From: an uncultured Planctomycetales bacterium
GTDB lineage: Bacteria > Omnitrophota > Gorgyraeia > Zapsychrales > JAHFFX01
DNA: 64,000 nt
Assembly (NCBI GenBank): GCA_964612665.1
Contig: CAZTCI010000002.1
Location: forward strand, 147,659-211,658
Direction of reading: 5' to 3'
Shown here: in pieces, positions 33,975 to 35,976 of the stretch
Layout of the letters: every line of letters begins with the position of its first letter
How positions within the stretch are numbered: position 1 is the stretch's first letter
Made by a program: the position numbers and the translations under genes
Notes under the pieces: model-generated
What the model was told of the DNA's origin: nothing
Databases searched by the model: none
The model's input: the letters and a program-made list of their open reading frames with translations, nothing else

Positions 33975-34618
33975 TTAATATTATGAATATTGGGAATTTA
34001 AAAGGGATCACATTAACAGAATTGATAATGGCCTCAGTGATGTTGGGGGTCGTTATGCTGGGTATCATTTCGGTTGATTATGCCAGCCGCAAGACCCAGC
34101 AAACTACTTCCAGAGACACTTTAGTTTCTGCAACGACGGCGGCGACATTATTGGATATTACAAAAACAGCTGAACAAACCGTCGGAGATACAGCAATCGC
34201 CGCCAATATAGGTGTTCAGTCCGCGGGAGGAGGAAGCACCACTTGTTTCCGCCAAGATTTAAATGCTTTCCAAAATCAAACACCGAATGAATACACTAAT
34301 GATAGTTGGATTTGTTATACAACCTCAAGCACTAATAATAACATTGTAAAATGTACCCAAAATAATATCGCAGCTTGTCCCAATCCACCTCCTACTTCAC
34401 CTCCAAATCCGACTAACGCATATATTTTGGGAACATCTATTACCGGTGGTTTATCGATTGCCTGGAGTAACGGTGCTATCGGTATTGCTAATCCTCAAGC
34501 CCCAATTATTATTACACTCACAAATAGTTATACCCCCAGCTCAACCACATATAATTTAAACAACCCTAAAATTTCCTTGTCGACGGAAGTTTATCCTTCC
34601 GGCCACGCCTTTAAATGA
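33968..34618 (+). CDS. Prepilin-like protein (PilX/PilW-like minor pilin)
   Basis: KGITLTELIMASVMLGV motif; Thr/Asn/Ser-rich C-terminus; alternative start at 33983. Confidence 0.5.
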   Translation: MVINIMNIGNLKGITLTELIMASVMLGVVMLGIISVDYASRKTQQTTSRDTLVSATTAATLLDITKTAEQTVGDTAIAANIGVQSAGGGSTTCFRQDLNAFQNQTPNEYTNDSWICYTTSSTNNNIVKCTQNNIAACPNPPPTSPPNPTNAYILGTSITGGLSIAWSNGAIGIANPQAPIIITLTNSYTPSSTTYNLNNPKISLSTEVYPSGHAFK

Positions 34619-35976
34619 TGAATAAAAAAATTCTGCATTGGCAGAATTCTTTATTTAAATCTGTGGATGCATCTTCATTAGGATTGTTTCGTATCCTTTT
34701 TGGAATTTTAATGACGTGGCAAAGCTTTGTCGTTTTTAACGACCGCTTTGTTGAGGAAAATTTTATTAAAGCTTATTACCATTTTCCTTTTTCACTTTTT
34801 GAATTTTTGCATTTACCCATGCTTTCACCGGGATTGACAGGTTTTCTTTTTGCATTAGTGGGGGTAGGAGCTATTCTCATAACAATTGGGTTATTTTTCC
34901 GAATAGCATGCCTCATCTTTTTAATTTCTTTTGGCTATATATTTTTAGCGGAAAAAGGATTTTATAATGATTACCATTATTTGATCCTTTTAATTAATTT
35001 TTTGCTTCTAATAAGCAACGCAGACCGCTGGCCGTCTTTAATTAATTTAAGACGCCACCAACCGGCCAAATCCGCCGTTCCATTTTGGCAAATTTTTCTT
35101 TTGCGGATGCAAGTGGTTATTGTTTATTTTTACGCTGGTGTCTCTAAATTAAATTGGGACTGGTTGATCAAGGGAGAACCATTGCATCGGATCCTTTCAC
35201 ACCAAACATTTTTAGGACATTCTTGTGACCCATTATGGCTGGCACTTTTTTTAAGTTATGGCGGGATAATCATGGATTTTATTCTGGCTTTTTTACTTTT
35301 AACAGGACGGGGAAGGACCTTTGCGTTTATGGGGGTTTTATTGTTTAATCTCGTCAATGAATGGATATTTAAGGATATTGAGCTTTTTCCTTTGTTAATG
35401 ATTGTTACATTTGTAATTTTTCTAGAACCGCAACGGCCTCGAGAAATTTGGGAGCGCATAGTTAATAGAGTTAAAAAAAGTCCGTCAATATCTCCACTGC
35501 AAACAACAATAGGGGCGCGTTATTCTCAAATCATCGTAGTCTTTGTGGCATGTTACTTATTAATTCAAACTGTAATTCCTTTAAGGTTTTTATTTTATCC
35601 GGATGATTCTCGCTGGAGTTATGAGGGGGCGCGTTTTGCATGGCGGGTCAAGATTAATGCCAAGAAAGTTGATATGACAATTAAATTGGTAGATTTTAAA
35701 AACGCAAAGACTTGGTTGATTGTACCTGCGCGTTTCTTAACGCCGATTCAACTTTGGATGGACAATATCCCTGATATGATGGTACAGTTTGTTCATTATC
35801 TAAAAGAAGATTTTCAAAGGCAGGGAGTGGCAGACCCCATTATTTATATTGAAGCCAAAGCATCTTTGAACGGACGGCCTTTTCAAGATTACATTGCCCC
35901 TGACGTTGATATGGCTAAAGTGACATATCCGATGTTTTCTCATGCCGCCTGGATTGTTCCTCTAAAAGACCGGTAA
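34615..35976 (+). CDS. HTTM-domain protein (vitamin K-dependent gamma-carboxylase-like polytopic membrane protein)
   Basis: ASSLGLFRILFGILM N-terminus and VPFWQIFLLRMQVVIVYFYAGVSKLNWDW, which matches the VKGC block [29 protein letters not shown]. ATGA overlap with the last pilin gene. Confidence 0.75.
   Translation: MMNKKILHWQNSLFKSVDASSLGLFRILFGILMTWQSFVVFNDRFVEENFIKAYYHFPFSLFEFLHLPMLSPGLTGFLFALVGVGAILITIGLFFRIACLIFLISFGYIFLAEKGFYNDYHYLILLINFLLLISNADRWPSLINLRRHQPAKSAVPFWQIFLLRMQVVIVYFYAGVSKLNWDWLIKGEPLHRILSHQTFLGHSCDPLWLALFLSYGGIIMDFILAFLLLTGRGRTFAFMGVLLFNLVNEWIFKDIELFPLLMIVTFVIFLEPQRPREIWERIVNRVKKSPSISPLQTTIGARYSQIIVVFVACYLLIQTVIPLRFLFYPDDSRWSYEGARFAWRVKINAKKVDMTIKLVDFKNAKTWLIVPARFLTPIQLWMDNIPDMMVQFVHYLKEDFQRQGVADPIIYIEAKASLNGRPFQDYIAPDVDMAKVTYPMFSHAAWIVPLKDR

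Follow-up and report, generated by a model that had tools for sequence, protein, structure and literature searches.

In a 64,000-nucleotide stretch of an Omnitrophota genome (contig CAZTCI010000002.1 of assembly GCA_964612665.1; hereafter the window), the open reading frame (ORF) at 34615–35976 encodes a homologue of the vitamin-K-dependent gamma-carboxylase (VKGC), a membrane protein of the HTTM family, and is the final gene, in the same direction and with its start codon overlapping the preceding stop, of a type IV-filament cluster of the type IV pilus/type II secretion system (T4P/T2SS) class. Linkage of this gene to a supercluster of tetratricopeptide-repeat (TPR), exbBD and type IV filament genes was found to be lineage-wide. 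Residue mapping indicates that the quinol-activation/CO2 centre of the human enzyme is intact in the window protein, and that the acceptor pocket was rebuilt specifically in its clade. The best explanation as a whole, for which we estimate a probability of about 0.55, is that a quinol-using enzyme of the VKGC fold acts on a partner encoded in the pilus cluster. The enzyme family is known, while the subfamily, its pilus context and its pocket are new.

The 453-residue product is, with practical certainty, a true member of the VKGC/HTTM family. The Pfam profile HTTM (PF05090) matched residues 14–272 with 195.8 bits against a cutoff of 27.7 (E = 1.3e-57), and VKGC_lumenal_dom (PF22777) matched residues 304–452 with 134.5 bits against a cutoff of 27.7 (E = 3.7e-39); zero models of NCBIfam matched the protein at E ≤ 0.01, in a comparison that served also to look for kinship with SdpB-type HTTM proteins (antimicrobial peptide maturation). 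A phmmer search of the PDB gave human vitamin-K-dependent gamma-carboxylase (GGCX) as its sole match (E = 1e-35), in an alignment of residues 14–450 with human residues 56–505 that covers the Lys (K178 of the window protein, K218 of the human one). The original prediction had recognized an HTTM/VKGC homologue from a block of residues including this Lys and had proposed a PF05090 search as its check; both the profile match and the PDB alignment agree with it. A model constructed by AlphaFold2 (AF2) with 119 homologues as input showed a pLDDT of 94 and a pTM of 0.93, and its significant matches in a Foldseek search of the PDB consisted of 16 cryo-EM chains of GGCX only (E = 2e-21, TMq 0.85). The protein hence shares with GGCX the same fold over human residues 56–505, composed of an HTTM domain and a PBD-1-type lumenal domain, and retains the catalytic equivalents. 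It is, however, shorter (453 versus 758 residues), ends at approximately human residue 505, and is without PBD-2, the C-terminal domain, the first ~55 residues and the C99–C450 disulfide, of which the cysteines correspond to F57 and Y395 in the window protein. A weak resemblance to the MauE/DoxX superfamily was also detected (PF07291, E = 0.0016).

The gene overlaps its upstream neighbor, pil5, by the 4-nt sequence ATGA, which was read directly in the DNA as had been predicted: the ATG of the HTTM gene occupies 34615–34617 and the TGA of pil5 occupies 34616–34618 (...GCC TTT AAA TGA). Upstream of this junction, a series of genes lies on the plus strand in the order uvrA, a TPR gene, exbB, exbD, a Pro-rich 145-aa ORF, two small ORFs, pilM(N), pilO, a 144-aa ORF, a secretin gene, an MshEN-T2SSE ATPase gene, T2SSF, five prepilin genes, and the HTTM gene. 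The TPR protein (834 aa, encoded at 19834–22338) carries a signal peptide. Although pil5 gave zero Pfam matches, its designation as a fifth prepilin-like gene was borne out by a class-III signal (MNIGNLKG/ITLTELIM) and by orthologues located at the same position, directly 5' of the HTTM gene, in five other loci. A single-sequence search with pil5, performed as a reciprocal linkage test, returned pil5 itself as the only match, and scans for promoters and terminators near the operon gave only background signal. The arrangement resembles the minor-pilin operons of the T2SS and type IVa pili (gspGHIJK, fimU-pilVWXE), in which one major-like and four minor prepilins follow the ATPase and platform genes, together with a secretin and PilM/N/O. 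We know of no T2SS or T4P operon described with a VKGC/HTTM gene at its end, and no literature linking HTTM/VKGC with pilins, type IV filaments or Omnitrophota was found in a search of which the journal coverage was incomplete.

The wider family is large, as 5,843 of 1.84 billion cluster representatives match at E ≤ 1e-3, and the subclade of the window protein is represented by about 14 known proteins and by 4 of those 1.84 billion representatives (50%-identity clusters). A profile made from its close relatives gave scores of at least 599 bits for 12 proteins and of 440 for the next best, leaving a 160-bit gap, and a tree placed the clade as monophyletic on a long branch. Its named members are metagenome-assembled genomes (MAGs) of Candidatus Omnitrophota, and proteins of the clade type bear the signature Q-x-W-[ML]-D-N-x-P-D. 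A scan of the metagenome_contigs collection with clade-specific patterns recovered the locus of one member, P0006, again and nothing else.

Gene context was counted over 13 clade members with informative context, the window among them. The HTTM gene was linked to the pilus supercluster in 10–11 of the 13. The adjacency of pilin and HTTM genes, for which the original prediction had asked whether any relative conserves it, is present in six (the window, L003, L008, L089, L092 and L095) as five prepilin genes followed by the HTTM gene at gaps of −4 to 70 nt; in the five relatives, of which the HTTM proteins are 41–52% identical, the gap between pil5 and HTTM is 3–70 nt on the same strand. P0002 is probably a seventh case, with 154-aa and 224-aa genes upstream, as judged at the protein level. 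Three more members (L006, L088 and L094) carry the gene at the other end of the cluster, in the order uvrA-HTTM-TPR-exbB-exbD-...-pilM-pilO-secretin-ATPase, where it lies immediately upstream of the TPR gene heading the supercluster; in L110, uvrA-HTTM is followed by the contig end. Contig JBFXCX010000001.1 of GCA_050181705.1 is one example of the uvrA-HTTM type. These three loci are collinear with the window from an aminotransferase gene, panC, an aspartate dehydrogenase gene and uvrA through the ATPase gene, so that only the position of HTTM differs, by a shift of ~15 kb between the head and the tail of the supercluster. The outer flanks also vary, consisting of tRNA and men genes in the window and of rsmE-recA-recX-alaS in L003, L008, L092 and L095. 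The gene has thus stayed at a border of the same cluster despite a minimum of two or three rearrangements, a pattern that speaks for selection acting on the linkage. We regard a functional link between the HTTM gene and the supercluster as rather probable.

The catalytic residues were then compared with those of GGCX, for which two centers have been described (bioRxiv 10.1101/2025.02.09.637231; PMC12647623). In the center that deprotonates vitamin K hydroquinone (KH2), K218 is held by W223 next to D263, and in the Glu/CO2 center the Glu carboxylate is bound by N159, H160 and Y395, CO2 stacks on F299, and R436 lies on the substrate backbone. The activity of GGCX was lost in N159A, H160A, W223A, F299A and Y395A (PMC12647623). 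Human positions were mapped onto the window protein by MAFFT and HMMER alignment. The human sequence used for the numbering agreed with 20 of 20 landmark residues. The window protein keeps the equivalents of K218 (K178), W223 (W183), D263, Y211, D222, the wall residue F294 (F252), F299 (F258), W390 and R476. Throughout the clade these core equivalents are invariant, apart from that of D263, which 7 of 9 clade proteins retain, and K218 is kept in every one of the 120 homologues surveyed (9 clade and 111 non-clade proteins).

The pocket for the acceptor is different. N159, H160 and Y395 are replaced by D119, Y120 and A339 in the window protein, on which HMMER and MAFFT agree. While N159 and H160 are each kept in 110 of the 111 non-clade homologues, N159 is lost in 13/13 clade members; among the nine clade proteins of the survey, position 159 is occupied by D, E or A, and four have Tyr instead of H160. 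A small residue occupies position 395 throughout the clade, where other homologues have His, Phe, Tyr or Gln. Around R436, a one-residue deletion specific to the clade was found, and no basic residue occurs in either alignment register. A replacement of R436 by Trp was considered and dropped, as MAFFT pairs R436 with the clade-invariant W381, while HMMER pairs W381 with W437 and R436 with L380. Over all fetched loci, pocket and context match exactly: the pilus-linked proteins have D or A at position 159 and a small residue at 395, and all others have N159-H160 with His, Tyr, Phe or Gln at 395.

Candidate substrates were examined by aligning each of the five pilin families across the six loci. 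The families show the usual N-terminal helix, and conserved Cys residues, some of them in pairs, are present in pil2, pil3 and pil5. The extreme C-terminal tail of pil5 (34540–34618 in the window) is conserved in all six loci as N-[PR]-x11-[PL]-x-x-H-x-x, of which Asn and His are invariant; it lies directly 5' of the HTTM start and is a candidate recognition element. Besides the pilin genes, a TPR gene directly adjoins the HTTM gene in five clade members (L006, L088, L094, P0002 and P0154), and the TPR protein may supply the substrate-holding function that PBD-2 (residues 508–604; bioRxiv 10.1101/2025.02.09.637231) has in GGCX.

In the mechanism that we propose, the HTTM enzyme would be embedded in the inner membrane, its active site facing the periplasm, and would bind reduced menaquinone, for which the genome carries its own men genes. 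Through the K178 route, the quinol would be deprotonated and oxygenated with O2, a substrate in keeping with the cytochrome bd, superoxide dismutase (SOD) and class I ribonucleotide reductase (RNR) of this organism. The resulting strong base could then activate a C–H group on an exported, cluster-encoded partner, with or without addition of CO2. The likeliest partner would be a membrane-anchored pilin before its assembly, and the alternative would be the exported TPR protein or its cargo; a classical Glu/Gla site is probably not what the enzyme acts on. That the enzyme covalently modifies a pilin is a tentative proposal, to be taken as possible rather than likely. The fully specified version, namely a menaquinol- and O2-dependent VKGC-type enzyme that modifies type IV filament subunits or an exported partner at a non-Glu acceptor in Omnitrophota, is put forward with slightly more reserve still.

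Several observations weigh against this explanation. Neither a Glu-rich or Gla-like segment nor a conserved acidic cluster was found in the five pilin families. The recurrent TPR neighbor, together with HTTM-TPR fusions found elsewhere, points to a partner other than the pilins. P0006, on 8-kb contigs, shows an unrelated methyltransferase gene 5' of HTTM and no pilus genes, and P0154, on a 2.9-kb contig, shows a TPR gene 5' of HTTM and no visible pilus gene. Part of the conserved order could stem from inherited synteny: L003, L008, L092 and L095 share the rsmE-recA flank and are not fully independent, and the uvrA-HTTM type forms a single subclade in the tree, which makes it essentially one relocation event. 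Moreover, Omnitrophota often live in low-oxygen habitats, whereas oxygenase chemistry needs O2. No substrate motif was identifiable, and the pilus link is to be taken as credible but tentative.

The original prediction suggested a vitamin-K-dependent modification or export step acting on pilins or pilus-associated proteins, with gamma-carboxyglutamate (Gla) as the product to be sought on pilins. Classical Glu carboxylation would fit the retained equivalents of K218, W223, D263 and F299, the conserved operon coupling to pilins, and the menaquinone genes in the window. It was nevertheless judged very unlikely, and gamma-carboxy-Glu as the specific product is at best improbable, since the very residues of which the Ala mutants are inactive in the human enzyme (N159, H160 and Y395; PMC12647623) are D, Y and A here, PBD-2 is absent, no Gla-like segment is conserved in the pilins, and the men adjacency is unique to the window. 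A quinone-linked, disulfide-forming enzyme with a VKOR/DsbB-like role would suit the conserved Cys residues of pil2, pil3 and pil5 and the faint MauE/DoxX-superfamily resemblance. This idea was rejected as scarcely credible: zero Cys residues are conserved in the HTTM clade, leaving no redox-active thiol pair, and even the human disulfide pair is replaced by Phe and Tyr.

Two further alternatives deserve more attention, each of which we consider rather unlikely. The real partner could be the exported TPR protein with the ExbB/ExbD (TonB-type) part rather than the pilins, the TPR protein replacing the missing clamp lobe and presenting the substrate. The five loci with adjoining TPR and HTTM genes, the signal peptide on the window TPR protein, the HTTM-lumenal-TPR fusions, which make up 3 of the 10 long homologues seen in other bacteria, and the tie of the family to TonB-dependent receptors in other phyla are all consistent with it; in the window and five other loci, however, a pilin gene abuts HTTM while the TPR gene is ~12–15 kb away or not seen, and TPR proteins are very common as neighbors. 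Such a partner would also be compatible with a pilus role rather than exclusive of it, as both gene sets belong to one conserved cluster. Alternatively, the gene may have no functional link to its neighbors at all, encoding a stand-alone membrane quinol oxygenase or a housekeeping HTTM protein of which the position is inherited gene order. P0006 and P0154, without visible pilus neighbors, the small number of independent arrangements (about 2–3), the failure to find a partner motif in the pilin alignments and the epoxidation without carboxylation reported for the Leptospira orthologue are in line with this, but the stop/start overlap, the persistence of HTTM at the cluster border though both outer flanks changed and the gene moved about 15 kb from end to end, and the exact coincidence of the clade-specific pocket change with the change of context speak against it.

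Downstream of the HTTM gene, ARAGORN located tRNA genes for Thr (36157), Tyr (36425) and Gly (36728). The 5' half of tRNA-Thr(TGT), up to the anticodon, recurs as an exact 30-nt copy at 36092–36121, ~40 nt 5' of the intact gene (36157–36231). This truncated copy at the HTTM/tRNA junction suggests a scar of rearrangement or partial duplication. The men genes begin 1.1 kb 3' of HTTM, at 37085, and represent a separate transcription unit, because the three tRNA genes and the truncated copy intervene. The distance of ~1 kb given in the original prediction was hence accurate, but its use as a functional clue was not sustained: ubiE, menF and menD are absent from the vicinity of HTTM in every other locus fetched (100+ loci, tblastn), and the adjacency, seen in the window alone with tRNA genes and a rearrangement scar in between, was rejected as a conserved signal. 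The window ubiE is a bona fide UbiE/MenG gene (233 bits against a cutoff of 216, NCBIfam), while the UbiE-family methyltransferase next to HTTM in P0006 was rejected as UbiE/MenG (50.7 bits against a cutoff of 158, 22% identity to the window ubiE).

The suggestion that vitamin K could serve as a cofactor remained plausible, as ubiE, menF, menD, menB, menA, menC and menE all occur in the window. The region 50228–63645 additionally encodes a peroxiredoxin, an Fe/Mn SOD, a class I (O2-dependent) RNR (nrdAB) and a cytochrome bd oxidase (cydAB), which indicates a microaerobic, not strictly anaerobic, lifestyle of this Omnitrophota-like genome. With menaquinone synthesis and O2-handling genes in the same window, both co-substrates of a VKGC-type reaction are plausible. 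The men operon itself is split at 40985–44033. A gene for a WYL-domain-containing, PIF1-like helicase lies there between menD and menB, together with small AAA/zeta-like ORFs and a nucleotidyltransferase/HEPN pair resembling a toxin-antitoxin system, and the insert looks like a mobile or defense island. The features of the window are listed in Table 1.

Table 1. Location of the HTTM gene, the pilus supercluster and the downstream genes in the window, with the basis of each assignment.
Feature	Position	Strand	Basis
uvrA	from 16903	+	
Supercluster head: exported TPR protein (834 aa), exbB, exbD, Pro-rich 145-aa ORF	19834..24006	+	Pfam, signal peptide, collinearity
pilM(N)-like (531 aa), pilO (197 aa), 144-aa ORF	24722..27348	+	Pfam PilM_2, PilO; kept in L003, L006, L008, L088, L092
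Secretin (STN, Secretin_N, Secretin)	27352..28911	+	Pfam on identical gene in L001
Assembly ATPase (MshEN + T2SSE)	28975..30717	+	Pfam on identical gene in L001
Platform protein (T2SSF/PilC)	30749..31990	+	Pfam on identical gene in L001
Prepilin gene 1, major-pilin-like, 140 aa	32126..32548	+	N_methyl, ComP_DUS; PilA/GspG-like N-terminus
Prepilin-like gene 2, 154 aa	32686..33150	+	N_methyl
Prepilin-like gene 3, 151 aa	33151..33606	+	N_methyl, ComP_DUS
Prepilin-like gene 4, 128 aa	33588..33974	+	N_methyl 5e-5; weak PilV/GspI/ComGE matches
pil5, fifth prepilin-like gene, 211 aa from ATG (ORF from TTG 33968)	33983..34618	+	Class-III signal, orthologues
VKGC/HTTM homologue, 453 aa	34615..35976	+	Pfam, PDB phmmer, AF2, Foldseek, residue mapping
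Domains of the HTTM protein: membrane HTTM and periplasm-facing "lumenal" PBD-1-like; K178 = human K218			
Boundary: 30-nt tRNA-Thr copy, then tRNA-Thr, tRNA-Tyr, tRNA-Gly	36092..36800	+	ARAGORN, alignment
ubiE/menG, menF, menD	37085..40988	+	Pfam; outside pilus operon
menB, menA, menC, menE	44516-48836		Pfam

Some further features of the pilus clusters were observed. The window secretin contains a long Gly/Ser-rich low-complexity insert (GGSGSSSSGSSSGGSSASGGSSGGSAGSSAGGSASGGAG) at about residues 150–185, between the STN/N domains. In L003 (GCA_964374105.1), genes for a PMT_2 (glycosyltransferase-39-like) and TPR protein and for an extra major-type pilin lie 1.4–3.5 kb downstream of HTTM (12811–15264), which hints at further pilin-modifying functions near the cluster. 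In L089, the locus of P0003, a gene for a 1027-aa MFS/spermine-synthase fusion is located between the T2SSF and pilin genes (224–3307).

The context of HTTM genes in other phyla was different. Within 10 kb of HTTM, a secretin, T2SSE, T2SSF or prepilin motif was found in 0 of 79 loci from other phyla, and 65 of the 79 showed an operon composed of DUF4856, imelysin (Peptidase_M75), HTTM and a TonB-dependent receptor; imelysin or TonB-receptor neighbors occur neither in the window nor in any clade locus. The imelysin operons of L012–L087 (Bacteroidota and others; e.g., L016:5655-7151, L031:2519-4024, L067:4231-6831) sometimes include a gene for a protein with a haem-binding domain. Such operons suggest that the mainstream subfamily acts in connection with metal or haem uptake, though no paper naming both imelysin and HTTM was found in a search with incomplete journal coverage. 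The window protein shares with these mainstream bacterial VKGC proteins a two-domain architecture of ~440–500 aa, 30–39% identity and the same quinol-activation core. They differ in keeping N159-H160 and an aromatic residue or His at position 395 and in having imelysin/TonB-dependent receptor neighbors (65 loci), neither of which holds for the window clade, tied as it is to pilins and TPR-exbBD. Fusions of full VKGC homologues were also noted among P0174, P0230, P0221, P0203 and P0168. Three carry C-terminal TPR repeats, P0168 is a fusion with DUF3179, and P0203 (1038 aa) is fused to a UbiA-family prenyltransferase. The latter represents a direct link, at the level of the family, to prenylquinone metabolism, although only as a hint.

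The orthologue from Leptospira (P0094) is a full-length bacterial homologue with 35% identity to the window protein (local BLASTP), but it falls outside the clade in the tree as one of the 111 non-clade homologues. The Leptospira protein is reported to epoxidise vitamin K without carboxylating (Rishavy et al. 2005). The remark in the original prediction that bacterial HTTM proteins are poorly characterized is mostly true, but it overlooked MloH, a bacterial orthologue from the malonomycin pathway of Streptomyces. According to two sources (PMC12647623; bioRxiv 10.64898/2026.08.19.745780), MloH is a demonstrated carboxylase that modifies an aspartyl residue in a vitamin-K-dependent manner. Compared by description only, it exemplifies bacterial HTTM chemistry on a non-Glu acceptor, which is the kind of divergence proposed here for the window clade. 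MloH acts on an intermediate of a polyketide synthase–nonribosomal peptide synthetase (PKS-NRPS) system in a biosynthetic gene cluster, whereas the window gene lies in a pilus operon with no such cluster and with no Gla-domain substrates evident among the five pilins.

Bacterial VKGC homologues number in the thousands, and MloH is the only one with a known substrate. Few candidate partners, namely five pilins and one exported TPR protein, are encoded next to the HTTM gene of the window, which provides a testable handle, and the clade-specific change of the acceptor pocket implies that the chemistry has been re-targeted. If the pilus link is real, a redox- and vitamin-K-dependent step would exist in type IV filament biology, and the vitamin-K carboxylase fold would cover a wider range of reactions. 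Modification of filament subunits or of an exported partner at a non-Glu acceptor would, if true, be a kind of pilin modification not described before, and would give the bacterial carboxylase-like enzymes that depend on vitamin K their first protein substrate. Even without the pilus link, the bacterial VKGC homologues split into subfamilies defined by their context (imelysin/TonB-receptor, pilus/TPR, and others) with differing pockets, which qualifies a recent claim of uniform conservation of the catalytic residues among bacteria (PMC12647623).

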